Shown in pieces: positions 2,566-49,090 of a stretch of DNA of 64,000 nt (the stretch's first letter is position 1; each line of letters begins with the position of its first letter). The translations under genes and the position numbers were made by a program. The DNA is from Prevotella sp. Its GTDB lineage: Bacteria; Bacteroidota; Bacteroidia; Bacteroidales; Bacteroidaceae. The notes below the pieces were generated by a model that had not been told where the DNA came from, searched no databases, and saw nothing but the letters and a program-made list of their open reading frames with translations. The stretch is from contig JAFTQG010000046.1 in assembly GCA_017462915.1 (NCBI GenBank), positions 15,856-79,855 on the forward strand. Reading direction: 5' to 3'.

Positions 2566-3906
2566 ATGAACAACAACAGAGACTCTTTAGACTTCTCAAA
2601 AGAGCCGGTGGGACGGCTTTTCCGCAAGATGTTCCTGCCCACGCTCATAGGTATGGTGTCGATGGTGGTGCTCAACATCACCGACGGCGCCTTTGTCGGC
2701 CACGGTGTAGGCAGCGACGCCTTGGCGGCGGTGAACATCGTGGCACCGTTATACATGATTGTCAGCGGCATAGGACTGATGTTCGGCATAGGCGGCAGCG
2801 TCGTGGCGAGCATACATCTCTCGAAGGGAAACGTCAAGGCCGCCAACATAAACCTCACGCAGAGCGTCATGGCGAGTGTCGCCGTGGGCATCGTGCTCGG
2901 GGCGTTGGTCTTCATGTTCCAGAGGGAGACATGCCTCCTCTTCGGCTGCTCGGAAGCGCTAATACCGCTCGCCTGCTCATACATAAAGTGGGTGGCGTTG
3001 CTCACTCCGTTCAACATGTTCGGCATGACAGGCATGTTCATGGTAAGACTTGACGGCAACCCGAAGTTTGCCATGGGCGTAAACTGCGGCATTGCGGCAC
3101 TGAACATCCTGCTCGACTACCTCCTCGTCTTCCCCATGCAGATGGGACTTGAAGGTGCGGCGATAGCCACCCTGACGGCTTTCGGTTCCGGCTGCATACC
3201 GCTGGCGTGGTTTCTGCTGACAAGGACAAAGACCGTGCATTTCCGCAGGATAAAGGCCAGCAGGACAAGTGTCGCGCTCACCGCACGCAACCTCGGCTAT
3301 CAGATGAAAATCGGGGCATCGGGACTGCTCGGCGAACTGGCCTTGTCTTCGACGATAATCGTCGGCAACTATGTCTTCATACACTACCTCGGCGAGGACG
3401 GCGTGGCGGCCTTCTCGGTAGGATGCTACTGCCTGCCTATCGTCTTCATGATAGGCAACGCCATAGTGCAGAGCGTACAGCCGATAATCAGTTTCGCCCA
3501 CGGCATGAACGATGACGCAAGGCTTGCCAGCGCACGGCGCATAGCCTTCGGCACAGCCGCCATAACGGGCATCGTCGGAATGCTCTCGATATGGTTCGGG
3601 GCAGGCATAATTGCCGTGACGTTCATGGAACCGGGCTGTCATGCCTACGAACTGTGTCGCGACGGACTGCCCTACTATTCCCCAGCATTCCTTTTCATCG
3701 CCGTGAATGTCGTGATGACAGGTTATCTGCAGAGCGTCGAGGAAGCGCGTAAGGCCATGGTCTTCACCGCGTTGCGAGGCTTCCTCTTCTCCATACCGTG
3801 CTTTATCATCCTCCCGATGGTCGTCGGCGACTATGGCGCATGGCTCGCCCTGCCACTTGCCGAGGCAATGACCACGGCGGTGATGGCATGGAGGTTGTAC
3901 GGTTAA
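2566..3906 (+). CDS. MATE family efflux transporter
   Basis: 446 aa and polytopic. The N-terminus (KEPVGRLFRKMFLPTLIGMVSMVVLNITDGAFVGHGVGSDALAAVNIVAP) is typical of MATE/NorM-like proteins. Confidence 0.85.
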   Translation: MNNNRDSLDFSKEPVGRLFRKMFLPTLIGMVSMVVLNITDGAFVGHGVGSDALAAVNIVAPLYMIVSGIGLMFGIGGSVVASIHLSKGNVKAANINLTQSVMASVAVGIVLGALVFMFQRETCLLFGCSEALIPLACSYIKWVALLTPFNMFGMTGMFMVRLDGNPKFAMGVNCGIAALNILLDYLLVFPMQMGLEGAAIATLTAFGSGCIPLAWFLLTRTKTVHFRRIKASRTSVALTARNLGYQMKIGASGLLGELALSSTIIVGNYVFIHYLGEDGVAAFSVGCYCLPIVFMIGNAIVQSVQPIISFAHGMNDDARLASARRIAFGTAAITGIVGMLSIWFGAGIIAVTFMEPGCHAYELCRDGLPYYSPAFLFIAVNVVMTGYLQSVEEARKAMVFTALRGFLFSIPCFIILPMVVGDYGAWLALPLAEAMTTAVMAWRLYG

Positions 3907-4016
3907 GCGGTCATACGGTCAGGCGGTTGAGCGGTTTCAGGAGTGATAGCTGATATAGCCGGGATAGCCGCTATAGAAACTATTATGGCTATATCGGCTA
4001 TTACGGCTATAAAAAC
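3905..4016 (+). repeat. stop-anchored repeat tract: GU-rich 8-mers (RNRCGGTY x4) then a palindromic run of 9-mers (ATAGCCG / CGGCTAT)
   Basis: Starts in the MATE stop codon. 3905-3937 reads aagcggtc atacggtc aggcggtt gagcggtt. 3944-4016 has three ATAGCC-type 9-mers followed by three GGCTAT-type 9-mers. There is no AC-rich arm at this locus. Confidence 0.6.
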
Positions 4017-4040
4017 CACACTTCCGGCCTCAACAAAAAA

Positions 4041-4077
4041 ATCAGGGCAAGCGGCTTGCAACAGCCACTTGCCCTGA
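4041..4077. terminator. bidirectional rho-independent terminator between convergent MATE and ddh genes
   Basis: Stem atcagggcaagcggc / gccacttgccctgat (one mismatch) and loop ttgcaac. An A-run lies on the left and a T-run on the right. Confidence 0.75.
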
Positions 4078-13745: not shown

Positions 13746-15038
13746 ATGAAACGACTGTTTATACTCACATATCTCCTCTTCCCTCTCCTGCTGTTGCTGC
13801 CGGGCACAGCGCAGGAAGTGACAGACTCCGTCACGACAGACACCCTCTACACCGACACGCTGGAGACTGACACACTGGCTTCGGACAGCCTTGTGCACAA
13901 GACCGTGCAGCAGAAGATAAGTGAACTCCTCGACACAGACTTTTTCAAGAAGACACAAGTGGGCATCATGGTCTACGACCTCACTGCCGATTCCCTCGTC
14001 TTCGCCCATAACGAACGCCAGCTGCTGCGCCCGGCATCGACCATGAAGGTCCTTACAGCCATCACCGCACTGGACTATCTGGACGGCTCATACCGCTACG
14101 CCACATCATTGAGATACAACGACGGCGACCTCACTGTCGTGGGAGGAATGGACCCGCGGTTCAACAGCGACGACATGAACGCGTTTGTAGAGGCTGTCGA
14201 GAAGCTCGATACAGACACCATCTATGGCGAACTGAAAGAGGACAGGTCGTTCAAGGACTCCAAGACGTTAGGCGAAGGCTGGTGCTGGGACGACAAGAAT
14301 CCGGTCCTCACGCCGTTGCCATGGAACCGCAAGGACAAGTTTCTCGAGAAATTCAGACAGATGCTTGCCAATGCACATATCGTGATTTTGCCGAAAGACT
14401 CCATCCCGAGAGATTCTCTCGGCAACAGGATTGCCACAGCATCGTCATCTATCGCCCCGTCAACACTCGTCACACGCCACCACACCCTTGACCAGATACT
14501 TGGCAGGATGATGAAAGAGTCAGACAATTTCTATGCCGAGACGATGCTTTACCAGATAGCCCACAAGGCCGGAGGCAAGGGTGCTTCCGCGAAATCGGCC
14601 TTCACTGTCATGAAACGCCTGATACGCAAGCTCGGACTTGACCCTTCCGACTATCGTCTCGCTGACGGTTCGGGCCTGTCACTGTACAACTACCAGACGA
14701 CAGAGCTGCAGGCAAAGCTACTGCGCTATGCCTATAAGGACTCCAATATATACAGCCATCTGTATCAGTCCATGCCTGTCGCAGGAGTCGACGGCACGCT
14801 GAAAGAGAGGATGAAACGCACGAAATGCCGAGGCAACGTGCGCGCCAAGACAGGCACCCTTACGGGAATATCGTCACTGGCAGGATACCTGACGACGGAG
14901 AACGGCAACGTCCTGTGCTTCTCCATCATCAATCAAGGCATACGCCGCGCAGCACCAGCAAAGGCTTTCCAAGACAAAGTCTGCATGATTCTTTACGGAT
15001 ACGGGGCGCAATGTCAGCAACAGCCTGCCGAACCGTGA
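13746..15038 (+). CDS. dacB: D-alanyl-D-alanine carboxypeptidase/endopeptidase, PBP4 (S13) family
   Basis: Signal peptide plus the three motifs STMK (SxxK), SDN (SxN) and KTGTL (KTG). Confidence 0.8.
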   Translation: MKRLFILTYLLFPLLLLLPGTAQEVTDSVTTDTLYTDTLETDTLASDSLVHKTVQQKISELLDTDFFKKTQVGIMVYDLTADSLVFAHNERQLLRPASTMKVLTAITALDYLDGSYRYATSLRYNDGDLTVVGGMDPRFNSDDMNAFVEAVEKLDTDTIYGELKEDRSFKDSKTLGEGWCWDDKNPVLTPLPWNRKDKFLEKFRQMLANAHIVILPKDSIPRDSLGNRIATASSSIAPSTLVTRHHTLDQILGRMMKESDNFYAETMLYQIAHKAGGKGASAKSAFTVMKRLIRKLGLDPSDYRLADGSGLSLYNYQTTELQAKLLRYAYKDSNIYSHLYQSMPVAGVDGTLKERMKRTKCRGNVRAKTGTLTGISSLAGYLTTENGNVLCFSIINQGIRRAAPAKAFQDKVCMILYGYGAQCQQQPAEP

Positions 15039-15130
15039 CCTTTCACACCACAAAAGGTGACGGTTGACAGGGTGAAAGGTCACCCTCTGCCCAGCAAAAG
15101 GTCACCTTCCGCAAAACGCCCCGTGACCAT
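15033..15130. repeat. cluster of REP-like palindromic units AAAGGTSACC(TTT), 5 units
   Basis: Units: ccgtgaccttt (overlaps the dacB stop), aaaaggtgacgg, gaaaggtcaccct, aaaaggtcacctt, ccgtgaccat. They share a roughly 40-nt module with the 21946-22004 cluster. Confidence 0.7.
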
Positions 15131-17334: not shown

Positions 17335-19089
17335 ATGGCAAATTTCTTTCAAGATAATCCTGAGATAAAGTTTCATCTCAGCCACCCGTTGCTGAAAAGG
17401 ATTGTGGAGCTCAAGGAGCGCAACTATTCCGATTTCGGCAAGTATGACTATGCACCTGAGAACTTCGAGGATGCCCTCGACTCTTATGAGCGTGTGCTTG
17501 ACCTCGCCGGCGATGTAGCGGCAAACATCATTGCCCCTAACGCCGAGGCTGTCGATGCAGAAGGTCCTCATGTAGAAAACAACCGCATGGTCTACGCCTC
17601 AAAGACCTACGAGAATCTTGACGCCACCATCAAGGCTGGCCTCAACGGTGTGACAATGCCACGCCGATACGGCGGCCTCAATTTCCCTATGGCCATCTAC
17701 TCTGCCATAAACGAGATGATAGCCTGCGGCGATACAGGCTTTGAGAACATCTGGTCTCTGCAGGACTGTATAGAGACTCTCTATGAGTTCGGAGACGAGG
17801 ACCAGCGTCAGCGTTATGTCCCACGCGTATGCCAGGGCGAGACGATGTCCATGGACCTCACTGAGCCGGATGCAGGTTCCGACCTGCAGAGTGTCATGCT
17901 CAAGGCGACATTCGACGAGGAGAACAACTGCTGGCGACTGAACGGCTGCAAGCGATTCATCACCAACGGCGACTCAGACATTCACCTTGTGCTTGCACGC
18001 TCAGAGGAGAACACACGCGACGGACGCGGACTCTCCATGTTTATCTACGACAAGCGCGACGGCGGTGTTGACGTGCGACGCATAGAGAACAAGCTCGGCA
18101 TCCACGGCTCCCCTACCTGCGAACTTGTATACAAGAACGCCAAGGCAGAGCTTTGCGGTTCACGCAAGCTCGGACTCATCAAGTATGTCATGGGACTGAT
18201 GAACGGTGCGCGCCTCGGCATTGCAGGCCAGTCTACCGGAACATCACAGATGGCATACAACGAGGCTCTCGCCTATGCCAAGGACAGGAAGCAGTTCGGC
18301 AAGGCTATCATAGAGTTCCCTGCCGTATACGACATGCTCGCGACCATGAAGGCCAAGCTCGACGCAAGCCGCACGCTCTACTACACCACTTCACGCTATG
18401 TAGATGTCTACAAGACTCTTGAGGACATCGAGCGTGAGCGCAAGGAGGCTGGCGAGCGTCTCACACCGGAAGAGAAGGCGGAATGCAAGACATTCTCACG
18501 TCTCGCCGATGCTTTCACACCGCTTGCGAAGGGCATGACATCCGAATATGCCAACCAGATAGCATACGACGGCATACAGGTGCACGGCGGTTCAGGCTTC
18601 ATGCTCGAGTACGCATGCCAGCGTCTGTACCGCGATGCCCGCATCCTCACCATCTACGAGGGTACGACACAGCTCCAGACTGTTGCCGCAGGACGCTACA
18701 TAACGAACGGATTCTACGGACAGGTCATTGCCGATATGCTTGAGGCAGGCCAGGCACCAGCCTCTGTAGGCTGTGCAGACTGGTGTGCAGAGGAGTTCCT
18801 TCCTCTGAAAGAGCGTGTAGCAAAGATGGCAGAGAAGTATAACGAGGCTGTCGCATACACCAACGAGCAGAAGAACGACGAGTTCAAGGACCTCGTCATA
18901 CGTCACCTCTACGAGATGGCAGGCGACTGCATCATGGCGATACTCCTCATCAACGACGCTTCAAAGGCTCCTGAACTGTTCGGCAAATCGGCACGCGTCT
19001 ATACACGATATGCCGCAGCAGAGGTGGAGAAACATTACGATTTCGTGATGTCAGCCACAGCCGCAGACATAGAAGACTACCGCAAGTAA
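17335..19089 (+). CDS. acyl-CoA dehydrogenase (long, ~580-aa type)
   Basis: ACAD motifs are present (..TEPDAGSDL.., ..IQVHGGSGFMLEY..YRDARILTIYEGTTQLQ). It sits in an operon-like arrangement with etfBA. Confidence 0.85.
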   Translation: MANFFQDNPEIKFHLSHPLLKRIVELKERNYSDFGKYDYAPENFEDALDSYERVLDLAGDVAANIIAPNAEAVDAEGPHVENNRMVYASKTYENLDATIKAGLNGVTMPRRYGGLNFPMAIYSAINEMIACGDTGFENIWSLQDCIETLYEFGDEDQRQRYVPRVCQGETMSMDLTEPDAGSDLQSVMLKATFDEENNCWRLNGCKRFITNGDSDIHLVLARSEENTRDGRGLSMFIYDKRDGGVDVRRIENKLGIHGSPTCELVYKNAKAELCGSRKLGLIKYVMGLMNGARLGIAGQSTGTSQMAYNEALAYAKDRKQFGKAIIEFPAVYDMLATMKAKLDASRTLYYTTSRYVDVYKTLEDIERERKEAGERLTPEEKAECKTFSRLADAFTPLAKGMTSEYANQIAYDGIQVHGGSGFMLEYACQRLYRDARILTIYEGTTQLQTVAAGRYITNGFYGQVIADMLEAGQAPASVGCADWCAEEFLPLKERVAKMAEKYNEAVAYTNEQKNDEFKDLVIRHLYEMAGDCIMAILLINDASKAPELFGKSARVYTRYAAAEVEKHYDFVMSATAADIEDYRK

Positions 19090-19214
19090 TGGTTTTATGG
19101 TTATCGGTTGGTGGTGTTTGGTCTTTGGCAAACCCATAACCAACAACCCAAAACCAACAACCGTATAACCCTAAACCGTATAACCGCATAACCGCAAACC
19201 CTATAACCGTCCAA
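19090..19214 (+). repeat. stop-anchored mirrored repeat: GU-rich arm (19090-19128) then AC-rich 7-8-nt periodic arm (19131-19214)
   Basis: Begins directly after the TAA at 19087-19089. In the right arm, aacc recurs every 7-8 nt (ccgtataacc, ccgcataacc ...). Confidence 0.65.
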
Positions 19215-19254
19215 CCGCCATAACCTCCTCGCAAGGGAGATTATGGCGGTTTTT
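19215..19254 (+). terminator. rho-independent terminator after acyl-CoA dehydrogenase
   Basis: Stem ccgccataacctcc / ggagattatggcgg (one mismatch), a short loop, then TTTTT. Confidence 0.8.
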
Positions 19255-19288
19255 CATGTAATTATTTGTCTGTTAATGAAAAAGTTTG

Positions 19289-19296
19289 TACCTTTG
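19289..19296 (+). promoter_or_regulatory. candidate -7 box TACCTTTG for fabI
   Basis: TAnnTTTG match with a TTTG about 21 nt upstream (19265-19268). It lies 39 nt before ATG 19335. Confidence 0.45.
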
Positions 19297-19334: not shown

Positions 19335-20195
19335 ATGTACAACTTACTTAAAGGCAAAAAAGGCATCATCTTCGGTGCCCTCAATGACCAGTCCATAGCA
19401 TGGAAAGTTGCAGAACGCGCTGTAGAAGAAGGCGCAGAGATTGTACTCACCAATACAGCAGTGGCCATACGCATGGGAACTCTTGACGAGCTCGCCAAGA
19501 GCACACATGCCGCAGCTGTCATTCCAGCCGACGCCACAAGCGTCGCAGACCTTGAGAACCTGTTCACCGAGGCCCAGAAGGCTCTCGGCGGAAAGATAGA
19601 CTTTGTACTCCACTCCTGCGCAATGTCTGTAAATATGCGTAAGAAGCGCACATACGACGACCTCGACTATGGCTTCCTCGACAAGACACTTGATATATCC
19701 GCAATATCTTTCCACAAGATGATGCAGGTAGCAAAGAAGCTCGATGCCATCGCCGAGGGCGGTTCTATCCTCGCCCTGACATACGTCGCTTCACACCGCA
19801 CCTTCTTCGGCTACAACGACATGGCCGATGCAAAGGCTCTCCTCGAGTCCATCACACGCTCGTTCGGATACATCTACGGCCGCGAGAAGCAGGTCCGCGT
19901 GAACTGCATATCACAGTCGCCTACCCTCACCACCGCAGGCGGCGGCATAAAGGGCTTCGACGGAATGCTCGACTTTGCAGACCGCATGTCACCTCTCGGC
20001 AACGCATCGGCTGACGACTGTGCCGACTACTGCATCACACTCTTCTCAGACCTCACGAAGAAGGTCACCATGCAGACCCTCTTCCATGACGGCGGATTCT
20101 CCAATATGGGCATGTCTCTGAGAGGCATGGAGCAGTATAACAAGTCGTTCATCCCAGAAAATACCGACGAGAACGGCAAGATCATATACGGTTAA
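19335..20195 (+). CDS. fabI: enoyl-[acyl-carrier-protein] reductase (NADH), FabI
   Basis: MYNLLKGKKGIIFGALNDQSIAWKVA... is a typical FabI N-terminus. Length 286 aa. Confidence 0.85.
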   Translation: MYNLLKGKKGIIFGALNDQSIAWKVAERAVEEGAEIVLTNTAVAIRMGTLDELAKSTHAAAVIPADATSVADLENLFTEAQKALGGKIDFVLHSCAMSVNMRKKRTYDDLDYGFLDKTLDISAISFHKMMQVAKKLDAIAEGGSILALTYVASHRTFFGYNDMADAKALLESITRSFGYIYGREKQVRVNCISQSPTLTTAGGGIKGFDGMLDFADRMSPLGNASADDCADYCITLFSDLTKKVTMQTLFHDGGFSNMGMSLRGMEQYNKSFIPENTDENGKIIYG

Positions 20196-20312
20196 ATGGT
20201 TGTTGGTTGTGGGTTTCAGGTTTTTCACAGCCGTAAACCCATAACCCAAAACCACCAATCCACAACCCCAAACCAAAAAACCGCATAACCAAAAAACCGC
20301 AAAACAACCGCC
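20196..20312 (+). repeat. stop-anchored mirrored repeat: GU-rich arm (20196-20225) then AC-rich arm (20233-20312)
   Basis: Begins directly after the fabI TAA. The arms read atggttgttggttgtgggtttcaggttt ... taaacccataacccaaaaccaccaatccacaaccccaaacc ... Confidence 0.6.
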
Positions 20313-20353
20313 TATGGCATAAAACCGATGACATCTCCCATGATGTCATGACA

Positions 20354-20361: not shown

Positions 20362-20404
20362 AGATAAAACGAAGAACGTTGTGTCTACATCTTGCTGTAA
20401 TAAA

Positions 20405-20560
20405 GCGTAGGAAACTTTAACACTGATAACAAGATTGGCATGATGGTTCTCCACGTACCATACGTGGGGCTGCCGTCTCCATTCCGTTATCAAGGGCTTT
20501 CCTACCGCCTTTTACAGAGGGATGAGCGATGAGCAGTTCCACGTTTCCGTTTCTCTACAT
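20405..20560 (+). promoter_or_regulatory. candidate structured cis-regulatory RNA element, copy a
   Basis: Closing helix GUAGGAAAC (20407-20415) / GUUUCUCUAC (20549-20558). Inner helix GGCA/UGCC. 8-bp hairpin at 20449-20469. It is a paralogue of 20712-20878. Strand is inferred from the promoter and the downstream gene. Confidence 0.35.
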
Positions 20561-20565
20561 AAAAG

Positions 20566-20629
20566 AATCATCAGTTTCCAACAAACAATCATCCGTTTCA
20601 AACAAAACAATCATCCATTTCCAACAAGC
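20566..20629. repeat. 3 tandem copies of a 21-22-nt unit AATCATCNNTTTCMAACAARC
   Basis: Units start at 20566, 20587 and 20609, between the two structured elements. Confidence 0.8.
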
Positions 20630-20711
20630 AAACCTCCGATTATCATGTAAAAAACATCAACATATCATCAATAATTCAAAGAAACGTTGTGTCTTCATCT
20701 TGCTGTAAAAA

Positions 20712-20878
20712 AGCGTAGGAAACTTTTTTTTACCCAAACATCTGGGTTCATACTGATAACAAGACCCTGGCATGATGGTTCTCCATGCTGTCTGCATGGG
20801 GTTGCTGTCTCCATTCTCAAGTCAAGACTTCGTGTCTGAGCAAAAGATGGAAACATATTGGTTCCACGTTTCTGTACC
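20712..20878 (+). promoter_or_regulatory. candidate structured cis-regulatory RNA element, copy b
   Basis: Closing helix GUAGGAAAC (20715-20723) / GUUUCUGUAC (20868-20877). The hairpin at 20781-20801 has compensatory changes relative to copy a. Confidence 0.35.
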
Positions 20879-22123: not shown

Positions 22124-22131
22124 TACCTTTG
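22124..22131 (+). promoter_or_regulatory. candidate -7 box TACCTTTG for the BASS symporter gene
   Basis: TAnnTTTG match 124 nt upstream of ATG 22255. Confidence 0.4.
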
Positions 22132-22154: not shown

Positions 22155-22250
22155 ATCCATAACTGGAAACCCATACAACCCACAACCGAATACCCATACC
22201 CCAACACCCAAAACCATACAACCATAAACCCGTAAAACCGCAAAACGACC
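22155..22250 (+). repeat. AC-rich, nearly G-free degenerate repeat tract abutting a start codon
   Basis: Reads aaatccataactggaaacccatacaacccacaaccgaatacccataccccaacacccaaaaccatacaaccataaacccgtaaaaccgcaaaacgaccgcc and ends 4 nt before ATG 22255. There is no GU-rich partner arm. Confidence 0.6.
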
Positions 22251-22254
22251 GCCA

Positions 22255-23139
22255 ATGACAAGCCTTTTCATAGTCTTACCCATACTGACGCTGCTGATGT
22301 TCGACCTCGGTCTGACACTGCGTCCGCAGGATTTCCTTTTAGTAGCCACACGTCCCAAGGCCATTGCCGTGGGACTTCTCGGCCAACTCATATTGCTTCC
22401 GCTGACGGCATACTGTCTTGCCACGATGCTCGGCCTACCGCCGTTGCTGTTCATCGGCGTCATGCTGGTGGCCTGCTGTCCGGGCGGCTCGTCAAGCAAT
22501 ATCTTCTCCATGCTCGCCAAGGGCGATGTCGCGCTGTCCGTATCACTTACGGCATTAAGCTCCGTCATCACCCTCGTCACCGTGCCTGCCATCATGCACT
22601 ACGCCACAGTGTCGGCAGGCGAGGCGATTGGCGTACGCCTGCCCATGGGCAACCTCCTTCTGCAAAACCTCGTGACGATGCTTGTGCCCATCGTGGCTGG
22701 CATCATCGTGAGACAGAAATGGAACCATGCGGCGGCAAGCATAGACCGTGTGCTGTCAAAGACGGCGTTTCCGGCACTGATGTTGCTGGCAGGGCTCTTC
22801 TTTGTGCAGAACCAGGAGGCTATCGCGGAACACTTTCCGGCCATCGGACTGTGTGTCACCATGCTGATAATCGTCACGACCGCCATGGCATACGGCATCG
22901 GACGCCTGTCGCGACTGAACAGGAAAGAGCGCCGCACAATAGTGATTGAGGTGGGTATGCAGAACGCTGCGCAGGCCATAGCGGTGGCTTCCAGCCCGTT
23001 TATCTTCAACAACGGCATGATAGCCGTGCCGGGCATAGTGTATGCCCTCATGATGAATGTCGTACTGCTGGCATACGTCGGCGGCATAAAGTTCTGCGGC
23101 AGCATGTCATGCAGCTCGGTTTTTGCAAATAAATACTAA
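22255..23139 (+). CDS. bile acid:sodium symporter (BASS) family transporter
   Basis: 294 aa and polytopic. The motif CCPGGSSSNIFSMLAKGDVALSVSLTALSS is typical of the family. Confidence 0.8.
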   Translation: MTSLFIVLPILTLLMFDLGLTLRPQDFLLVATRPKAIAVGLLGQLILLPLTAYCLATMLGLPPLLFIGVMLVACCPGGSSSNIFSMLAKGDVALSVSLTALSSVITLVTVPAIMHYATVSAGEAIGVRLPMGNLLLQNLVTMLVPIVAGIIVRQKWNHAAASIDRVLSKTAFPALMLLAGLFFVQNQEAIAEHFPAIGLCVTMLIIVTTAMAYGIGRLSRLNRKERRTIVIEVGMQNAAQAIAVASSPFIFNNGMIAVPGIVYALMMNVVLLAYVGGIKFCGSMSCSSVFANKY

Positions 23140-25697: not shown

Positions 25698-25705
25698 CAA
25701 AGATA
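25698..25705 (-). promoter_or_regulatory. candidate -7 box (TATCTTTG on minus) for the tRNA pair
   Basis: The plus strand reads caaagata, 13 nt upstream of the tRNA-Leu 5' end. Confidence 0.4.
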
Positions 25706-25773
25706 CGAAGAAAATGCAAGAATGCAAAACAATGGGACGGATGGAGCATTATAATTACATTTTCTTAACAGGA

Positions 25774-25938
25774 GGTTGGTGGTGGTTTAGTAGTTTGGTT
25801 ATTTAGTGGTTTGGTGGTTTAGTTGATTAGGGGTATAGCCGAAATAACCGATATAGCCGGAATAGAATCTATCAACTAAACGACTAAACACCCAAACCGC
25901 CAAACCACTAAACGACTAAACAACCAAACCACTAATCC
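25774..25938 (-). repeat. stop-anchored mirrored repeat hairpin downstream of the SPFH gene: 8-mer arms with a 9-mer ATAGCCGRA core
   Basis: Plus-strand left arm 25774-25829 (ggtggttt agtagttt ggttattt agtggttt ggtggttt agttgatt). Core 25831-25873. Right arm 25874-25938 (atcaacta aacgacta aacaccca aaccgcca aaccacta ...). The arm bases next to the core pair almost perfectly. Confidence 0.7.
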
Positions 25939-25942
25939 CTTT

Positions 25943-26896
25943 TTACTTGCCCTCCTTGAACAGTTCCTTTATTCCGCCGATAGAGCCGAGGATATTTGTC
26001 GCCTCGTATGGCAGGTAAACGGTCTTTGTCTTGTCACCCTGCGCCAGCTGCTCCATCATCTGGATATACTTCTGTGCAAGGAGATAGTTTGCCGGATTGG
26101 ACGACTGTCCCACGGCATCCGTTATCTTCTGTATGGCAATCGCCTCAGCCTCAGCCTTGCGGATACGTGCCTGCGCCTCGCCTTCTGCACGCAGGATAGC
26201 CTGCTGTTTGTCAGCCTCGGCACGGTTTATTATCGCCAGTTTGTCGCCCTCGGCATGTAGGATGGCCTGCTGCTTGTCAGCCTCCGAATTGAGGATTGTG
26301 GCGCGCTTGTTACGCTCCGCCTGCATCTGCTTCTCCATAGCCTGAAGGACAGACTCCGGCGGCATGATGTCCTGAAGCTCCACGCGGTTGACTTTCACGC
26401 CCCATTTGTTTGTAGCATCGTCCAGAACGGCACGGAGCTTCGTGTTGATGGTGTCGCGTGATGTCAGCGTCTGGTCAAGTTCCAGTTCGCCGATGATGTT
26501 TCTCAGCGTCGTCTGCGTGAGCTTCTCAATGGCATTCGGGAGATTGTCTATCTCGTAAACCGCCTTGAACGGGTCCACAATCTGAAAGTACAGGAGTGCA
26601 TTGATCTGCATCTGTATGTTGTCTTTCGTAATCACATTCTGCCTGTCAAAGTCATAAACCTGCTCGCGGAGGTCGATGGTCGACGAGTAGACATAGCGTC
26701 CGCGGTGCATCGCTATGATAGGTTTCGCGCGGTCGATGAAAGGGATTATGACGTTCACGCCTGGGGAAAGCGTGGCGAAATACTTGCCGAGACGCTCGAT
26801 GATGCGTGTCTCTGACTGCGGCACAATGACGAGTGCGTTCTTTGCAAAGATGGCCACCAGGATGACGATGGCACCGATAACATAAATTCCAACCAT
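25943..26896 (-). CDS. SPFH domain / band 7 family protein (stomatin-like)
   Basis: N-terminal TM segment, SPFH core, and a C-terminal coiled-coil with repeated AEADKQQAIL(R/H)AEG units. It is paired with an NfeD gene. Confidence 0.85.
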   Translation of the reverse strand: MVGIYVIGAIVILVAIFAKNALVIVPQSETRIIERLGKYFATLSPGVNVIIPFIDRAKPIIAMHRGRYVYSSTIDLREQVYDFDRQNVITKDNIQMQINALLYFQIVDPFKAVYEIDNLPNAIEKLTQTTLRNIIGELELDQTLTSRDTINTKLRAVLDDATNKWGVKVNRVELQDIMPPESVLQAMEKQMQAERNKRATILNSEADKQQAILHAEGDKLAIINRAEADKQQAILRAEGEAQARIRKAEAEAIAIQKITDAVGQSSNPANYLLAQKYIQMMEQLAQGDKTKTVYLPYEATNILGSIGGIKELFKEGK

Positions 26897-28793: not shown

Positions 28794-28903
28794 ACGGCAA
28801 AGGGTCACGGTTTGCATCGCATTCCGTGACCCTTTGCCGTGTCAAACGTTACCTTTCACCATGTCAAAGGTGACCTTTTTCCGTGTAGAGGGTCACCCTT
28901 TGT
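28794..28903. repeat. REP-like AAAGGTSACC cluster; the first two units form a perfect 17-bp hairpin (28794-28840)
   Basis: The hairpin is acggcaaagggtcacgg tttgcatcgcatt ccgtgaccctttgccgt. It is followed by caaaggtgaccttttt and agagggtcaccctttg, and lies 56 nt after the Fic stop. Confidence 0.7.
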
Positions 28904-33123: not shown

Positions 33124-33961
33124 GCTTCTGTCCATAATATGCCTTGTCATCCCTCTGTCGCTGTCGGCACAGGAGAAGCACATCACCAGCACGAAGATGC
33201 TCGGTGTAGGATACTGTGGCGTGCAGGACACGTATCTCTCGCCAGAGCATTACGGAGGCATGGAGATACGCTACCTCTCCCATACCGAGCGTGAGCGTGC
33301 CGAAGCTCCGCAAGACTCTCTCGCGTCGCAGGAAGGACGGAGAGGCAGGGAGCGCTGGACACGGCTTATCATCAACGAAGGGAACTTCGCTTACGGGAAG
33401 TCGCGCTCGAAGAACGGTGCCACGCTTTCCGGGGCATACCATTTCCAGTATGGAGTGTTGCGGAAATGGACTTTCCTTGCCGACCGCCTGACACTGAAAG
33501 GCGGGGCACAGGCGGAGTTTATTGGTGGCTTCATCTACAACACGCGCAACGGCAACAATCCTGCACAGGCGCGTGCGCTCATTGACATCGGACCTGTCGT
33601 CATGGCAAAATACATACTGAAAGGCGGCACAGCCGAGGGGAAAGGGCGCATAGCTGTGGCTTACGAGGCGTCGTGCCCGCTCTTCGGACTGACCTTCTCG
33701 CCCAATTACGGGCAGTCTTACTACGAGATTTTCAACGAGGGGAACTACGACCGCAACATCGTTCCCACGACCATAGTGTCCATGCCGTCACTGCGACAGC
33801 AACTGACGTTCACCTTCTGCCTCTCACGGACAAACCTCTCTGTGGGCTACCTCGGAGACTATCGGCAGCTGCAGGTGAACAATCTCAAGCAACACGTGTA
33901 CAGTTCGATGCTCATGGTGGGCATGACACATAGCTTTTATGCAGGAAGGAGGCGCCTATGA
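33116..33961 (+). CDS. hypothetical secreted protein, possibly outer membrane
   Basis: ATG 33116 (ATGAATAG overlap with the parC stop) gives the signal peptide MNRLLSIICLVIPLSLSAQE. Confidence 0.55.
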   Translation: MNRLLSIICLVIPLSLSAQEKHITSTKMLGVGYCGVQDTYLSPEHYGGMEIRYLSHTERERAEAPQDSLASQEGRRGRERWTRLIINEGNFAYGKSRSKNGATLSGAYHFQYGVLRKWTFLADRLTLKGGAQAEFIGGFIYNTRNGNNPAQARALIDIGPVVMAKYILKGGTAEGKGRIAVAYEASCPLFGLTFSPNYGQSYYEIFNEGNYDRNIVPTTIVSMPSLRQQLTFTFCLSRTNLSVGYLGDYRQLQVNNLKQHVYSSMLMVGMTHSFYAGRRRL

Positions 33962-35031
33962 CATCATTATTGCAAGGCAAGACCTCTCTTCCCTACCGTT
34001 TCTTCCACATCTTAAAGACTTCCGGCAGACGGGCTTTCATGCTCGTCTTCATAGCCGTTGTTTCTGCGGCGGTGACCGGTTGCGTCAACGAGGAGGAGTT
34101 TGAGAACACTTCCAGCGGTAACTTCGAGGCGTTGTGGAAAATCATGGACGAGCATTATTGTTTCTTTGAGCTGAAGGAAAAGGAGCTTGGGGTAAACTGG
34201 GACGAGGTGCACGGACGCTACAGCCGTCAGACAGCATCGCCTCTCAGCGGTGACCAGCTGTTTGAAATCCTCGGCAATATGCTCGGCGAACTGCGGGACG
34301 GGCATGTGAACATGTCATCGTCCTTCGACCTTGCGCGCAACTGGTCGTGGCGCGAAGACTATCCCACGAATCTTTCAGACACACTCCTCAGGACCTATCT
34401 CGGCACGGACTACAGGCAGACGTGTGGCATGCAATACAGATTTCTTGACGACAATGTGGGATATGTGCGGTGCTCTTCCTTCGAATATGCTCTCGGAGAG
34501 GGCAATATCGACGAGATTCTCTTCTATCTTGCGCCTGCCAACGGCCTGATAATAGATGTCCGCTCCAACAGCGGCGGACTGCTGACATCGGCGGAGAAGC
34601 TGGCAAGACGCTTCACAAACCAGGACATCACCGTGGGCTATATGCAGCACAAGACGGGAAAGGGGCATAACGATTTCTCGGCGATGGAGGAGCAGCGGCT
34701 GTCTGCCGTCAACCGCCTGCGCTGGCAGAAGAAGGTCGTGGTGCTCACGAACCGTGGCGTATACAGTGCCGCAAACGAGTTTGTGAAATACATGAAGGTA
34801 TGCGGAGCGACGACTGTAGGTGACCGCACGGGAGGAGGAGCAGGTATGCCGTTCTCCTCAGAACTGCCCAACGGCTGGTCGGTGCGCTTCTCTGCCTGCC
34901 CTATGTATGACGTCAACGGCAACTCTACGGAGCAGGGCATAGACCCAGACATCGCCGTGGCGCTGACAGACGAGGATTTCCTGCGAGGAAAGGATACAAT
35001 AATCGAATATGCAAGAAAACTGTTTCAGTAG
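33958..35031 (+). CDS. S41 family peptidase (tail-specific protease-like), lipoprotein
   Basis: ATGA overlap with the upstream gene. Lipobox ..AAVTGC. The S41 catalytic region IIDVRSNSGGLL is followed by VVVLTNRGVYSAANEF. Confidence 0.75.
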   Translation: MTSLLQGKTSLPYRFFHILKTSGRRAFMLVFIAVVSAAVTGCVNEEEFENTSSGNFEALWKIMDEHYCFFELKEKELGVNWDEVHGRYSRQTASPLSGDQLFEILGNMLGELRDGHVNMSSSFDLARNWSWREDYPTNLSDTLLRTYLGTDYRQTCGMQYRFLDDNVGYVRCSSFEYALGEGNIDEILFYLAPANGLIIDVRSNSGGLLTSAEKLARRFTNQDITVGYMQHKTGKGHNDFSAMEEQRLSAVNRLRWQKKVVVLTNRGVYSAANEFVKYMKVCGATTVGDRTGGGAGMPFSSELPNGWSVRFSACPMYDVNGNSTEQGIDPDIAVALTDEDFLRGKDTIIEYARKLFQ

Positions 35032-35033
35032 AT

Positions 35034-35279
35034 AGTTGTTTGGTGGTTTAGTTGTTTAGTTGTTTGGTGATTTAGTCGTTTAGTTGTCAGTTCCTATTTC
35101 GGCTATACCGGCTATTTCGGCTATACCAACGACAAAAAACAAAGACCCACTAAACAACTAAACCACTAAACCACCAAACAACCAAACAACTAAACCACCA
35201 AACCACCAAACCACTAAACCACTAAACCACCAAACCACCAAACCACTAAACAACCAAACCACTAAACAACCAAACCACC
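35034..35279 (+). repeat. stop-anchored mirrored repeat: 7 x RGTKGTTT (35034-35089), 9-nt-spaced GGCTAT core (35095-35128), 16 x AAACMACY (35152-35279)
   Basis: The left arm starts 3 nt after the TAG at 35029-35031. The right arm ends 5 nt before ATG 35285. The two 8-mer consensus sequences are exact reverse complements. Confidence 0.85.
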
Positions 35280-35284
35280 AACCA

Positions 35285-36097
35285 ATGCTAAAAGTAGAAC
35301 ATATAGTAAAAAGGTATGCCGGACATACCGCTCTCGACGATGTCAGCATCAGCGTCGAGAAAGGGAAGGTTTTCGGACTGTTAGGGCCGAACGGTGCCGG
35401 CAAGACGACTCTTATCCGTATCATAAACCGCATAACAGCTCCCGACAGCGGAAAGGTGTTCTTTGACGGACACGATTTCTGTGCCGATGACGTGCGCAAG
35501 ATAGGTTATCTGCCCGAGGAGCGCGGCCTGTACAAGAAGATGAAGGTCGGAGAGCAGGCGCTGTATCTCGCCCGTCTCAAGGGTATGTCGTCACATGACG
35601 CCAAGGCAGAACTGACGAAATGGTTTGAGAAGTTTGAAATCATGCCATGGTGGCACAAGAAGCTGGAGGAACTCTCCAAGGGTATGCAGCAGAAAGTGCA
35701 GTTCATAACGACCGTTGTCCACCGTCCGCCGTTGCTCATATTCGACGAGCCTTTCTCTGGTTTCGACCCCGTAAACGCCGAACTCCTGAAGCGTGAGATA
35801 CTGCAGTTGCGCGACGAGGGACACACCATCATCTACAGTACTCACAACATGGCTTCGGTGGAAGATGTCTGTGACGACATCGCACTGATAAACAAGAGCC
35901 GTGTAGTGCTCTCGGGCAGCGTACTGGACGTGAAGAGGAAGTTCGCAGACGGCACTTTCGAGATAAAGGCGCAGGGCACACGAGAGCAGGTGGAAACTCT
36001 CGCACAGCAACTCCGGAACGTGGAGATGCACGAGGTGCTCCCGTCCATGAACGACGTATTCCTCCGCACGATAAATCCGTCAACGGAAAATATTTAG
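35285..36097 (+). CDS. ABC transporter ATP-binding protein (ABC-2 type)
   Basis: Walker A GPNGAGKTT, signature LSKGMQQK, Walker B LLIFDEP. Confidence 0.9.
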   Translation: MLKVEHIVKRYAGHTALDDVSISVEKGKVFGLLGPNGAGKTTLIRIINRITAPDSGKVFFDGHDFCADDVRKIGYLPEERGLYKKMKVGEQALYLARLKGMSSHDAKAELTKWFEKFEIMPWWHKKLEELSKGMQQKVQFITTVVHRPPLLIFDEPFSGFDPVNAELLKREILQLRDEGHTIIYSTHNMASVEDVCDDIALINKSRVVLSGSVLDVKRKFADGTFEIKAQGTREQVETLAQQLRNVEMHEVLPSMNDVFLRTINPSTENI

Positions 36098-36113: not shown

Positions 36114-37463
36114 ATGAATAACTTAGGAATAGTAATAGGCAGGGAATACATGACCCGTGTGAAGAAGAAGTCATTTCTCATCCTCACCATACTCATGCCG
36201 TTCCTTATCGTAGCCCTCGGCGCGTTTCCCATCATCCTCGGCTCTATAAAGGATGACGAGCAGAAACAGGTAGTCATAATGGACAAGACGGAGAAGTATC
36301 TGCCGCTTTTCGTCAACGCGTCAGCCTCCGGCGATTCTGTCTCCGACGACGAGATGCAGGGATACAAGTTCGTGCCTGGCGCTGGCGACCTGCAACTCTA
36401 CAATAGTGAGGAGATGGACATAGAGGCTGTGGTTTGCATCACAGAAGACCTGACCTCAAACCCTAATGCCGTAAAGATTTACAGCCGTAAGGAGGTGCAG
36501 GGCGATCTCATACGTCATGTGGAGAGGGTCCTTGACACACAGATTCACAAAGACAAGCTCGCCGCATATAATATACCGCAGCTTGAGACGATTGTCTCCG
36601 ACCTGCAGACAGGCATAGATATAAAGACCGTAAAATGGGGCGAGAACGGCGAGGAGACATTCTCCTCAAGCGAGCTCGCCATGGCTCTCGGCCTCATCTC
36701 CGCCATACTTATATATATGTTCGTGCTCATGTACGGTGCGATGGTCATGCAGGGGGTCATGGAGGAAAAGACAAACCGCATCGTTGAGGTCATCGTGGGC
36801 AGTGTCAAGCCGTTCCAGTTGATGATGGGCAAGATTATCGGTGTCATGCTTGTGGGCTTTACACAGATGATAGTATGGGCTGCGATGATTATAGGCATAA
36901 GCGCAGTCATAGGCATAAGTGCCATGCCGTCCATGACAGGCCCTTCCGTTGGCATTGAAGGCCAGCAGGTAGCTCCGCAGGCAGCTCTTCAGGCAATGGA
37001 GAGCAATCCGTCGGCAGAAATCATGCAGGCGATAAGCAATCTGCCATTGGCGGAGATAGGTATCATGTTCCTCTTCTTCTTCCTCGGCGGATATATACTC
37101 TACTCCTCTTTCTACGCGGCAATAGGCGCGGCGGTAAACTCGCAGGAGGATACCTCGCAGTTTATGACACCGATGGTGATCGTCATGGTCTTTGCCCTCT
37201 ACGCGGCAATGGGCTCTGCAGAGAACACCGACGGTCCGCTCGCGTTCTGGGCATCGATGTTCCCACTCACAAGTCCTATCGTGATGATGGTACGTATACC
37301 GTTCGGAGTGCCGCTATGGCAGGAGATACTGTCTCTCGTCATCCTCTATGCGACAGCCATCCTGTTTGTATGGGTTGGCGGAAAGATATACCGCATCGGC
37401 ATACTCATGTACGGAAAGAAGCCTACTGTCAAGGAGATGTGGAAGTGGATGAAATATTCTTGA
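36114..37463 (+). CDS. ABC-2 family transporter permease
   Basis: 449 aa with an N-terminal TM, a large extracytoplasmic loop and C-terminal TM bundles. It is adjacent to the ATPase gene. Confidence 0.75.
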   Translation: MNNLGIVIGREYMTRVKKKSFLILTILMPFLIVALGAFPIILGSIKDDEQKQVVIMDKTEKYLPLFVNASASGDSVSDDEMQGYKFVPGAGDLQLYNSEEMDIEAVVCITEDLTSNPNAVKIYSRKEVQGDLIRHVERVLDTQIHKDKLAAYNIPQLETIVSDLQTGIDIKTVKWGENGEETFSSSELAMALGLISAILIYMFVLMYGAMVMQGVMEEKTNRIVEVIVGSVKPFQLMMGKIIGVMLVGFTQMIVWAAMIIGISAVIGISAMPSMTGPSVGIEGQQVAPQAALQAMESNPSAEIMQAISNLPLAEIGIMFLFFFLGGYILYSSFYAAIGAAVNSQEDTSQFMTPMVIVMVFALYAAMGSAENTDGPLAFWASMFPLTSPIVMMVRIPFGVPLWQEILSLVILYATAILFVWVGGKIYRIGILMYGKKPTVKEMWKWMKYS

Positions 37464-37670
37464 TTGGTGATTTGGCCGTTTGGTGGTTTAGTCGTTTAGT
37501 ATCTACTGCTATAGCTTCTATTCCGGCTATCCTGCCATTATGGCTATAACCTCTACAGATTCCTATTCCGGCTATTCTGGCTATTCCGGCTATCACAACC
37601 ACACAACCGTATAACCGCACAACCGTATAACCGTATAAAACCGTATTCAATCAACCAATAAACTACTAAA
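37464..37670 (+). repeat. stop-anchored mirrored repeat: GU-rich 8-mers (37464-37500), GGCTAT 9-10-nt core (37501-37595), AC-rich 8-mers YAYAACCR (37596-37670)
   Basis: Starts directly after the TGA at 37461-37463 and ends 2 nt before ATG 37673. Confidence 0.75.
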
Positions 37671-37672
37671 CT

Positions 37673-38159: not shown

Positions 38160-38232
38160 TTGTTGATTAATGGCTTCTGGTTTTCAGCATTTGCTTTGGT
38201 GCATATCCACCCACAACCTCAACCATCCCCCT

Positions 38233-40244: not shown

Positions 40245-40280
40245 GTGTCACCCTTTGTCCTGTGAAGTGTCACCCTTGGC
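40245..40280. repeat. two REP-like units (ggtgtcaccctttg, aagtgtcacccttgg) in a 352-bp intergenic gap inside the polysaccharide locus
   Basis: Same GTSACCCTTTG word as the other clusters. Confidence 0.5.
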
Positions 40281-40431
40281 AGGGCAACCGTATCGGGTTG
40301 CTTGGTCAATAGTTTTTAGTATGTGCGGAAAGGTTGAAATTGTCGGATAAAAAATTCCTTATACTATTTGCAGAAAGCGAAATCCGCCTTGAGCAAACTC
40401 ATATCTGGATCTCCGTTTCAAAGATAAAAAC

Positions 40432-47923: not shown

Positions 47924-47954
47924 ACTTTTTGTTTTCCATTACATTTACTTTTAT

Positions 47955-48153
47955 AAGTAAGTCACCAAAATTAATGTATGGTATAAAGTGTTGGTTGTTT
48001 TTGAGATGTTTTCGTCTTGTAACGAAGAAGCATAACGGGCTATGTAACTGAGTGACAAGGCGGAAACAGCCAAAAAGAACAAGGTTTTATACATACAAGA
48101 TGTAAGCACTTGCTTTATCATTGATAGTGTCGTCTAATTGGGGCGACTTACTT
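47955..48153. mobile_element. MITE-like long-hairpin element, copy 2 (199 bp)
   Basis: Paralogue of 2337-2532 in the same orientation. It fills the gap between the gtrB-like stop (48158) and the acyltransferase start. Confidence 0.6.
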
Positions 48154-48157
48154 GTCA

Positions 48158-49090
48158 TCATTGCATTTCGTCAGTCTCCCCTATCATATAAGGAGGTCTG
48201 TTCTTTGTTTCGTTAAAGATTCGTCCTATATACTCGCCCAATATGCCAAGGCAAATAAGCTGTATGCCTCCCAAGAAGAGAATGATTACGACCAAGGTCG
48301 TGAAACCTTGCACTGGGTCACCAAAAATCAATGTCTTGACCAAATAATACAACAGGAAACAGAAAGAGATAAAGGCTATGACAAAGCCGGAGATGCTTGC
48401 AAACCGTAATGGCGTAGTGGTGAACGATGTTATGCCTTCAATGGCAAGGTTGAACAAAGAGAAGAAATTCCAGTTGCTGTTTCCTGCCACACGGTCTCCA
48501 CGATTGAACACTATTTCCTTCTTCCTATATCCTATCCAGCAGAACATACCTTTGGTGTAGCGTTCACATTCACGCAATTCCTTCAGCGCATTGACACACT
48601 TCCTGTCTAACAGACGGAAATCGCCGACATTCTGCAACACTTCAAATCTGGTAGTCGCATCCAATATACGGTAGAACAGCAAAGAGAACTGCTTGCGAAG
48701 CCAACTTTCCCTGCCACGGTCTGCACGTTTGGCGTAGACGTCCTGGTATCCCTGTTCCCAATATTCCAACATCTGCGGAATCAGCGACGGAGGGTCCTGT
48801 AAGTCTGCATCCATAATCACCATGCAATCGCCTGTCACATAATCAAAACCGGCAAGCATGGCATTCTCCTTTCCGAAATTTCGCGACAAGCTGACATATC
48901 TTATGCGTTTATCTTCTTGATGCAATGCCTTTACCATCTCAAGAGTGTGGTCACTGCTACCATCGTCAACAAAAACGACTTCCCACTCATACTCCGAATG
49001 TGAGTCCATCAAGCTGACAAGCTCCGGATATAACAAAGGGAGAGATTTTTCTTCGTTATAAGCGGGGACTAAAATAGAAACTTTCTTCAT
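48158..49090 (-). CDS. gtrB: GT2 polyprenyl-phosphate glycosyltransferase, GtrB-like
   Basis: ATG 49090 gives MKKVSILVPAYNEE..VFVDDGSSD..DADLQDPP. Two C-terminal TM helices and the adjacent GtrA-family gene fit the family. Confidence 0.75.
   Translation of the reverse strand: MKKVSILVPAYNEEKSLPLLYPELVSLMDSHSEYEWEVVFVDDGSSDHTLEMVKALHQEDKRIRYVSLSRNFGKENAMLAGFDYVTGDCMVIMDADLQDPPSLIPQMLEYWEQGYQDVYAKRADRGRESWLRKQFSLLFYRILDATTRFEVLQNVGDFRLLDRKCVNALKELRECERYTKGMFCWIGYRKKEIVFNRGDRVAGNSNWNFFSLFNLAIEGITSFTTTPLRFASISGFVIAFISFCFLLYYLVKTLIFGDPVQGFTTLVVIILFLGGIQLICLGILGEYIGRIFNETKNRPPYMIGETDEMQ

Follow-up and report, generated by a model that had tools for sequence, protein, structure and literature searches.

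The spacer between an S41 peptidase gene (33958-35031, plus strand, TAG stop at 35029-35031) and an ABC ATPase gene on the same strand (ATG at 35285) was analysed in a 64-kb stretch of Prevotella sp. DNA, referred to below as the window. From the stop codon of the peptidase to the ATG of the ATPase, the entire 253-nt spacer is made of octamer repeats and a 9-mer core. A GT-rich arm of about seven RGTKGTTT octamers (35033-35087), the first of which lies 1-2 nt past the TAG, is followed by a core or loop (35088-35146), in which GGCTAT is found at 35101, 35110, and 35119 with a 9-nt period ahead of an A-rich linker, and by an AC-rich arm of about seventeen AAACMACY octamers (35147-35284) that reaches the ATG. 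Tandem Repeats Finder returned period 8 with 6.9 copies for 35033-35087, period 9 with 3.1 GGCTAT-containing copies for 35100-35127, and period 8 with 16.9 copies for 35147-35281, so the tripartite architecture described in the original prediction is borne out by the sequence and by this program. The two octamer consensus sequences are, as had also been claimed, exact reverse complements of each other. Two consecutive AAACMACY units with at most one mismatch occur 28 times in the window versus 0.03 expected, and GGCTATN3GGCTAT occurs 12 times versus 0.15 expected.

The plus-strand RNA from 35029 to 35290 is predicted to fold into a hairpin of about 50 bp with -71.8 kcal/mol (z = -10.4), while the minus strand of the same interval gives z = -8.5. 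Over 53 nt, the GT arm is 92% complementary to 35154-35206, and in the partition-function fold it is predicted to be paired (unpaired probability 0.16). The proximal units of the AC arm pair with the GT arm and the distal 80-85 nt or so are predicted to be single-stranded; these distal units contain no G and no ATG, GTG, or TTG over about 80 nt.

Six further loci with the same grammar are present, all within the first 38 kb of the window, and in a composition scan of the window long GT- or AC-pure tracts were restricted to the seven loci and a short coding tract at 38202. A full copy with a GT arm, an ATAGCC/GGTTAT 9-mer core, and an AC arm lies on the minus strand at 25774-25938, downstream of a Band7 gene (stop at 25943-25945, minus strand) and upstream of the -7 box of a tRNA gene (25698-25705, minus strand). 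Its predicted anchoring to a stop codon does not apply on the plus strand, where no gene end lies beside the GT arm, but it does on the minus strand, where the GT-rich arm starts about 6-9 nt past the Band7 stop. Another copy (37464-37672, plus strand) fills the gap between the stop of an ABC-2 permease gene (37461-37463) and the ATG of a HIT gene (37673), and its parts are about four GT octamers, a core of GGCTAT 9-mers that is extended, and AC octamers of the AACCGTAT type. All three parts of the full architecture claimed for it are present; however, the GT arm is of the GGTGGTTT variant and the AC arm of the AACCGTAT variant, and the arms are not complementary. The occurrence of two octamer variants in the window had been recognised correctly.

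The copy that follows a MatE gene (3900-4016, plus strand) is built from CGGTNNNN octamers, a palindromic core of three ATAGCC and three GGCTAT, and a short AC run, and it resembles a locus of another Prevotella MAG (L077). A GT arm and palindromic core had been proposed from 3905 onwards; the core stands, and the start is corrected to 3900, the MatE stop TAA (3904-3906) sitting inside the first repeat unit (CGGTTAAG). Two copies consist of arms only. One (19090-19214, plus strand) lies immediately past the TAA of an acyl-CoA dehydrogenase gene (19087-19089) and ends in an AC tail of AACCGTAT/AACCGCAT units; the other (20196-20312, plus strand), immediately past the TAA of a FabI-like gene (20193-20195), combines a short GT arm with an AC tail of greater length. 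The last locus is an AC-only tract (22155-22250, plus strand) in the 5' leader of an SBF transporter gene (ATG at 22255), downstream of a -7 box, TACCTTTG (22124-22131). In the 24-kb polysaccharide locus of the window no element was found, in agreement with the original prediction. The GC content of that locus is 40.7%, and that of the rest of the window is 51.5%.

The long, slippage-tolerant hairpin that had been postulated for these elements is thus predicted strongly for the 35033 copy and for the 25774 copy (25765-25945, minus strand, z = -6.8), and more weakly for the copies after the MatE gene (3900-4020, z = -4.7, through the palindromic ATAGCC/GGCTAT core with 31-nt arms), the FabI-like gene (20193-20315, z = -3.5), and the acyl-CoA dehydrogenase gene (19087-19215, z = -3.1). 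Owing to the difference in octamer variant between its two arms, the 37464 copy does not fold (z = -0.34). The AC-only tract is predicted to be unstructured (-4.4 kcal/mol, z = 0.12).

The 35033, 25774 (minus strand), and 37464 copies have in common a non-repetitive arm/core junction, GTTTAGTCGTTTAGT-(10-18 nt)-TTCTATTYCGGCTAT, which in the 35033 copy is TTTAGTCGTTTAGT..TATTYCGGCTAT. The junction spans 45-57 nt and is present in three of the seven window copies, the remaining window copies and the loops of the metagenome loci being unrelated. Therefore, these three copies were either dispersed around the genome or homogenised against each other, and judging from the sequence the seven loci are a dispersed family rather than products of independent slippage.

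The permease adjoining the main element shares 99% identity with its match in a Prevotella sp. MAG, and the same species was also met in pig-gut assemblies, among others. In relatives with an 83-87% identical permease, the S41 stop and the ABC ATG are separated by 3 nt (e.g. TAGAATATG); the two are likewise 3 nt apart in a more distant contig with an identical HIT protein (L131). Since the sister species have a 3-nt gap, the 253-nt element is a lineage-specific gain at a once tightly coupled junction. The predicted stop-codon anchoring is correct as a description of position, right after stops, but it largely reflects that the element is the whole spacer of a gap that was ancestrally 3 nt.

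The suggestion that repeat copy number would vary between strains proved right: among strains with an identical ATPase protein the S41/ABC spacer is 86, 253, 262, or 343 nt, where arrays exceeding short-read length may be mis-assembled, so that exact unit counts are uncertain and the qualitative differences are not. The longer arrays contain four unit variants in an order that differs between strains. The 86-nt allele (L125) has no GT arm and is made of the GGCTAT core with three or four AC units, and four further contigs terminate within the AC array, which is the most strain-variable part of the element. The permease-to-HIT spacer, which holds the 37464 element, is 115-218 nt in other strains, and all three of its parts change. 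The elements flanking the FabI-like and Band7 genes are present in all ten strains sampled, with point changes and occasional insertions or deletions of 24 nt (three units).

Comparison of the filled site, CAGTAG-A-[element]-ATG, with the empty sites TTTTAGAATATG, TTTTAGGATATG, and TTTTAGATTATG revealed no target duplication, although the empty sites come from other species and the comparison is weak. The ends of the 35033 element are ragged repeat units instead of defined terminal inverted repeats, and no transposase was found among the ORFs examined in the 64-kb window and in short contigs of the species. Eight strain copies of the Band7 element, which vary little, were compared at 60 pairs; there were no double (compensatory) changes and several broken pairs. 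These copies give no sign of selection on the structure, and it may be the mutational process, rather than selection, that maintains complementarity.

A metagenome scan for three AAACMACY units yielded at least 120 loci. Among the matches listed, many are unrelated AC microsatellites and a clear subset shows, on either strand, a stop codon, then GT-rich 7-8-mers, a loop that is unrelated from one locus to the next, octamers rich in AC, and an ATG. This subset includes several contigs of the same co-assemblies, one of which, L148, has Prevotella-like proteins. A 78% identical relative of L148 (L299) has plain spacers of 33-55 nt, and L148 and L300, which are 91% identical, carry differing octamer variants at the same site. 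The core of the L148/L300 lineage is a small GC hairpin, CCAAGGCGTTTCTACGCCTTGG, and not GGCTAT. Putative analogues of the element, recognised by their arrangement, are therefore present in other Prevotellaceae-like metagenome contigs with other cores and octamer variants. An origin from phages was considered and rejected, as none of 27 viral contigs with three AAACMACY units has a GT arm.

In neighbouring tract pairs from the window and the metagenome loci listed, the order is GT-then-AC in 64 and AC-then-GT in 14, and the exceptions are mostly in contigs of very different composition. A GT arm that always lies 5' of the AC arm, as had been claimed, is thus the prevailing order; however, a 5'-GT...AC-3' inverted repeat is identical on both strands, so the polarity relative to genes is partly geometric. 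The informative point is the rarity of the AC-then-GT order. With genes on either strand, GU-rich RNA follows the stops and AC-rich RNA precedes the starts, which argues for a constraint at the level of mRNA rather than of DNA. In many co-directional gene pairs among the loci listed, both ends of the element lie 0-10 nt from the ORF boundaries. Of 14 such pairs among the loci listed, 12 have the longer arm on the start side and two have it on the stop side (p = 0.0065). Within a locus, the two arms pair with each other better than arms combined across loci do (mean rank 9.1 of 30 versus 15.5 expected, p = 1.4e-4); therefore, both arms of one locus use one octamer variant.

Partition-function folds were computed for 15 spacers, 14 with a GT arm and L125 without. 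The 25 nt past the stop have a predicted unpaired probability of 0.09-0.32 where a GT arm is present (14 spacers) and of 0.68 in L125. The 25 nt preceding the ATG are at least 0.85 unpaired in ten of the 15 spacers, intermediate in three, and mostly paired in two. Start-like codons are distributed unevenly: ATG, GTG, and TTG are all absent from the final 60 nt of 14 of the 15 spacers, and the first 60 nt contain 4-10 of them in the 14 GT-arm spacers and none in L125. Two simple accounts of the arms were set aside. The AC arm as an expanded native leader is weakly supported, as the window's native leaders are rich in A (43% A, 16% C, 17% G) and not in A plus C, and the arms as a supply of stops in three frames would be inconsistent, since between 0 and 3 frames are stopped.

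It is probable, on balance, that the elements form a young and fast-evolving composite minisatellite family, similar to REP/BIME or BOX elements, which has grown by slippage and has been shaped by translation without Shine-Dalgarno sequences. Each copy would be two mutually reverse-complementary octamer arrays around a lineage-specific core, which in this species is the GGCTAT 9-mer. Copies may have been dispersed by transposition or ectopic gene conversion, and the arrays would then lengthen and shorten through slippage during replication. For quasi-palindromes, a switch of template from one arm to the other is a well-established mechanism, and such arm-to-arm switching probably holds both arms of a copy to one octamer variant.

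A selective filter may act on these products, such that only copies compatible with Shine-Dalgarno-less translation persist. Prevotella ribosomes work without Shine-Dalgarno pairing and respond very sensitively to structure in the leader; translation depends on leaders that are unstructured, and a structure of -5.2 kcal/mol lowered expression five-fold (PMC3155529). AUG is also depleted around the start codons of Bacteroidetes (PMC6847099). Initiation without Shine-Dalgarno in Bacteroidota would need a leader that is unstructured and poor in start codons. An array of only A and C, which neither pairs with itself nor contains ATG, GTG, or TTG, would be tolerated or even useful before a start codon, while an array of G and T, rich in GTG and TTG, would be harmful there. 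Therefore, only the GT-then-AC order would persist, and the AC arm on the start side would usually be the longer one; the free tail, too, would follow from this filter on a repeat that expands by itself.

The consequences for the RNA can be potentially described as follows. At the 3' end of the upstream cistron, the GU/AC hairpin probably protects the end or offers a site for a double-strand RNase, by analogy with REP/BIME and phage hairpins. The hairpin element would break the tight coupling of stop and start and allow independent initiation, with the free AC tail as a landing pad for fresh initiation on the downstream cistron. The elements may act as mRNA 3'-end stabilisers or intercistronic regulators, both of which had been among the first suggestions.

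A more purposeful version of the last idea is that the element is an adaptive, tunable intercistronic regulator, in which the hairpin sequesters part of the AC leader, a terminating ribosome or an RNase III-type cut frees it, and the length of the array tunes the ratio of upstream to downstream protein in the manner of contingency loci. The GT arm lies 0-9 nt from the stop codon, which is within reach of the terminating ribosome; stems are long and nearly perfect (53 nt, 92% complementary); strains differ strongly in the length of their arrays; and the pattern of free tails is systematic. However, sister species have no elements at the same sites and manage with the 3-nt coupling, a search for compensatory changes found none, the arms have no fixed register of pairing, the 19090, 3905, and 25774 copies are in 3' untranslated regions without a downstream cistron, and the L125 strain has no GT arm at all. 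On these grounds an adaptive regulator is considered unlikely. Also unlikely is a dedicated, self-propagating intercistronic module evolved by Prevotellaceae for ribosomes that disregard Shine-Dalgarno sequences, whose GU/AC hairpin would cap or process the upstream cistron, whose AC runway, free of G and of start codons, would recruit ribosomes to the next AUG, and whose slippage in unit number would tune operon stoichiometry across strains in a heritable but rapidly reversible way; the chance of this is rather small. A phase-variable contingency repeat in the usual sense was rejected, since the arrays are non-coding, lie past stop codons, and have no promoter box at 35033 or 37464.

The position of the elements relative to promoters and terminators bears on two further explanations. 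A sigma-70 promoter scan is uninformative for this phylum. No Bacteroidetes -7 promoter box was found inside any element, and at 35033 and 37464 neither the array nor the stretch from it to the downstream ATG has a TANNTTTG box. Both of these copies are within an operon that has no -7 box from 30348 to the downstream genes. Overall, copies sit inside transcription units, either from stop to start or from stop to a real terminator. When Rfam 15 was searched over the elements, only tRNAs reached the gathering score, and the sub-threshold matches were miRNA-precursor models, which are generic long hairpins.

An involvement of Rho, in which an AC array of 80 nt or more, free of G, rich in C, and unstructured, would serve as a rut site with the GT arm as an anti-rut and thereby set operon polarity, is judged quite improbable. 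Such a composition favours Rho loading, and the AC arrays are 40-45% C, without G, unstructured, and up to 160-250 nt long; moreover, several copies are at operon ends upstream of intrinsic terminators. Yet many AC arrays abut the start codon of a downstream gene without its own promoter, where efficient termination would silence the ABC transporter and HIT genes, and AC-only tracts also serve as 5' leaders (22155 in the window; L132 and L154).

That the elements are Rho-independent terminators or transcriptional insulators, as the original prediction allowed, is very unlikely. There are stable hairpins immediately past stop codons, but the stems are followed by an AC tail and not by a U-run, and a consensus terminator scan found no terminator at the elements. 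Canonical terminators are distinct and lie beyond them: an intrinsic terminator at 19213-19256, with a -7 box at 19289 after it, past the 19090 copy, and a bidirectional terminator hairpin at about 4040-4075 past the 3900-4016 copy. Intra-operon copies, in addition, have no downstream promoter.

The notion of independent simple-sequence tracts or assembly artefacts without common origin is largely refuted and retains hardly any probability: among the matches listed, arrays of three AAACMACY units that lack a GT partner are frequent in metagenome and viral contigs of unrelated origin, and contigs often break in arrays, but the same elements are found in independent assemblies of different samples and pipelines (NCBI, ENA, Logan), three copies have a common non-repetitive junction, and the polarity, gene abutment, and arm matching are far from random.

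If the elements are regarded as a composite minisatellite family, as favoured above, they belong among the bacterial intergenic palindromic and minisatellite repeat families. REP elements are classically linked to the protection of mRNA 3' ends. Like REP, BIME, and REPIN sequences of Proteobacteria (PMC3733652, PMC3116915), the present elements are many intergenic, hairpin-forming, transcribed copies that are clustered and variable between strains. They are also often located right past stop codons as REP elements are, and REP termini can supply the stop, as happens at 3900-3906 here. Unlike in REP and REPIN sequences, the arms are arrays of 8-nt units that extend over 30-160 nt instead of a single palindrome of 20-40 nt with a GTAG or CGTC tag. 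No tagged REP-type palindrome was found in the window copies, and a small GC hairpin core was found only in the L148/L300 lineage. The strict GT-then-AC polarity and the AC arm that runs as a free tail to the start codon also set them apart from REP.

The BrickBuilt MITE/minisatellite of Porphyromonas gingivalis (PMC4596501) resembles the elements in its Bacteroidales host, its intergenic location, its restriction to a species, and its copy number, which is variable across loci and strains; it too is a tandem array within a larger element with inverted ends. However, in BrickBuilt a single array, made of 23-nt units, is combined with defined leader and tail segments and with small terminal inverted repeats; its distance to coding sequences is 49-591 nt, and it has promoters (PMC4596501). 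The present elements lie 0-10 nt away with no -7 box inside. Here, there are two complementary arrays of 8-nt units and 9-nt cores, which abut stop and start codons.

BOX elements of Streptococcus pneumoniae have a modular A-(B)n-C build with variable internal tandem modules of about 45-60 nt; they are intergenic, form stable RNA structures, and affect the expression of neighbouring genes. Sequence and host are unrelated, and BOX is not known to have composition polarity or stop-to-start filling. The early mRNA of phage T7 also has long hairpins between cistrons of a single transcript, whose cleavage by RNase III leaves a protective 3' stem upstream and a free leader downstream. T7 sites are unique and conserved, whereas here the arrays are hypervariable and processing is conjectural.

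By sequence comparison, the elements lack the tagged palindrome of REP/REPIN, the terminal inverted repeats and target duplication of MITEs, the empty-site comparison being weak, and the unit length, gene distance, and promoters of BrickBuilt. Full-text searches, including a Segatella copri transcriptome preprint and with incomplete coverage, found no description of such elements, in line with the earlier statement that no described class has this architecture. The features for which these searches gave no description are the paired reverse-complementary octamer minisatellites, the strict GT-then-AC polarity, the complete filling from stop to start, and the free AC tail.

Many gut communities, of humans as well as of livestock, are dominated by Prevotella and Segatella, and little is known about the expression of operons without Shine-Dalgarno sequences. 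The replacement of 3-nt junctions by a repeat of 100-350 nt with intact downstream genes (the ATPase is identical across strains) is a natural experiment, and the elements could reveal what the Bacteroidota ribosome needs upstream of a start codon. They are candidate parts for engineering expression in Prevotella and Segatella, which are hard to manipulate. They are also hypervariable strain markers, and contigs break at them when Prevotella metagenomes are assembled from short reads. Should there be a dedicated mechanism of copying, it would be a Bacteroidales counterpart of the REP/RAYT systems of Proteobacteria.

The GGCTAT core itself has a different distribution. A genome scan with the GGCTAT 9-mer core gave at least 114 matches, of which about 96 of those listed are non-Bacteroidales. 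The 18 Bacteroidales matches listed are mostly plain GGCTATAGA or GGCTATAAA arrays without GT and AC arms, and repeats coding for Gly-Tyr (GGC TAT) were confirmed in only three Bacteroidales loci (L037, L082, and L099). The core is therefore not diagnostic as a marker of the family and belongs to a separate, wider phenomenon, most Bacteroidales matches listed having no arms; nor is it part of a general grammar, as had been proposed, since it is specific to this species and the metagenome loops are unrelated to it. Among the matches listed, lone arrays of GGCTAT-type 9-mers are common in the intergenic DNA of Prevotella, Muribaculaceae, Sodaliphilus, and Alloprevotella MAGs, usually beside terminators; these genomes seem to have them as a habit of its own, related to the elements but separate from them.

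The polysaccharide locus (38200-64000) has a GC content of 40.7%, as against 51.5% in the remaining window, and it contains none of the GT/AC elements, the intergenic repeats composed of a GT-rich octamer arm, a core or loop, and an AC-rich octamer arm. The gene content 3' of the HIT gene differs in a strain that is 99% identical (L001). It is probably an island that was exchanged recently and varies between strains.

A sequence of about 200 nt is present in two copies, one upstream of the MatE gene (approximately 2330-2560) and the other within the polysaccharide locus (approximately 47950-48160), with a likeness of about 85% as judged by eye. It looks like a MITE, since each copy is bounded by the inverted ends TAAGTAAGTCAC ... 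GTGACTTACTTA. The motif GGTCACC(T/C)TT(T)G / AAAGGTGACC constitutes a second dispersed repeat family, in which short inverted and direct repeats are clustered in several intergenic regions of the window (15034-15115, 28800-28900, and 40255-40320), as well as in another Prevotella MAG (L077).

In a second Prevotellaceae lineage, represented by a metagenome contig with Prevotella-like proteins (L148, 4720-4760 and 7585-7625) and its 91%-identical relative (L300, 630-670), the core of the GT/AC elements is a small conserved GC hairpin, CCTCGTGCCAAGGCGTTTCTACGCCTTGG, which resembles a REP unit. Intergenic 9-mer arrays (GGCTATAGA, GGCTATAAA or GGCTATCCA) were found in MAGs of Prevotella, Muribaculaceae, Sodaliphilus, Alloprevotella, and other Bacteroidales (L009, L044, L050, L083-L085, L096, L098, L104, L111, and L115), and terminator hairpins often adjoin them. 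In L044, three distinct minisatellites of 7-9 nt are adjacent to one another.

Upstream of the PAP2 gene (ATG at 20928), an element of about 110-135 nt occurs twice (20375-20484 and 20683-20816), the copies being 95% identical in one segment and 80% in another. The two copies differ in an internal hairpin (CCACGTACC..GGTACGTGG-like in one form and CCATGCTG..GCATGG in the other), and the changes appear to be compensatory. The pair, for which no match was found in Rfam, may represent a duplicated structured RNA. Between the copies lies a tandem repeat, AAACAATCATCCGTTTCCAAC, with a unit of 21-22 nt and about 3.6 copies (20561-20646).

The spacer between the ABC-2 permease and HIT genes carries, in sister species, a conserved sequence of about 200 nt (L003, 6350-6620, and the equivalent spacer in L006/L007), which is missing from the window species and may represent either a small RNA or a leader with a regulatory role. 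Near the start of the window, a 66-nt tandem repeat (1510-1698; 2.9 copies, 95% matches) overlaps the 5' start of a TTG-initiated ORF (1539-2282).
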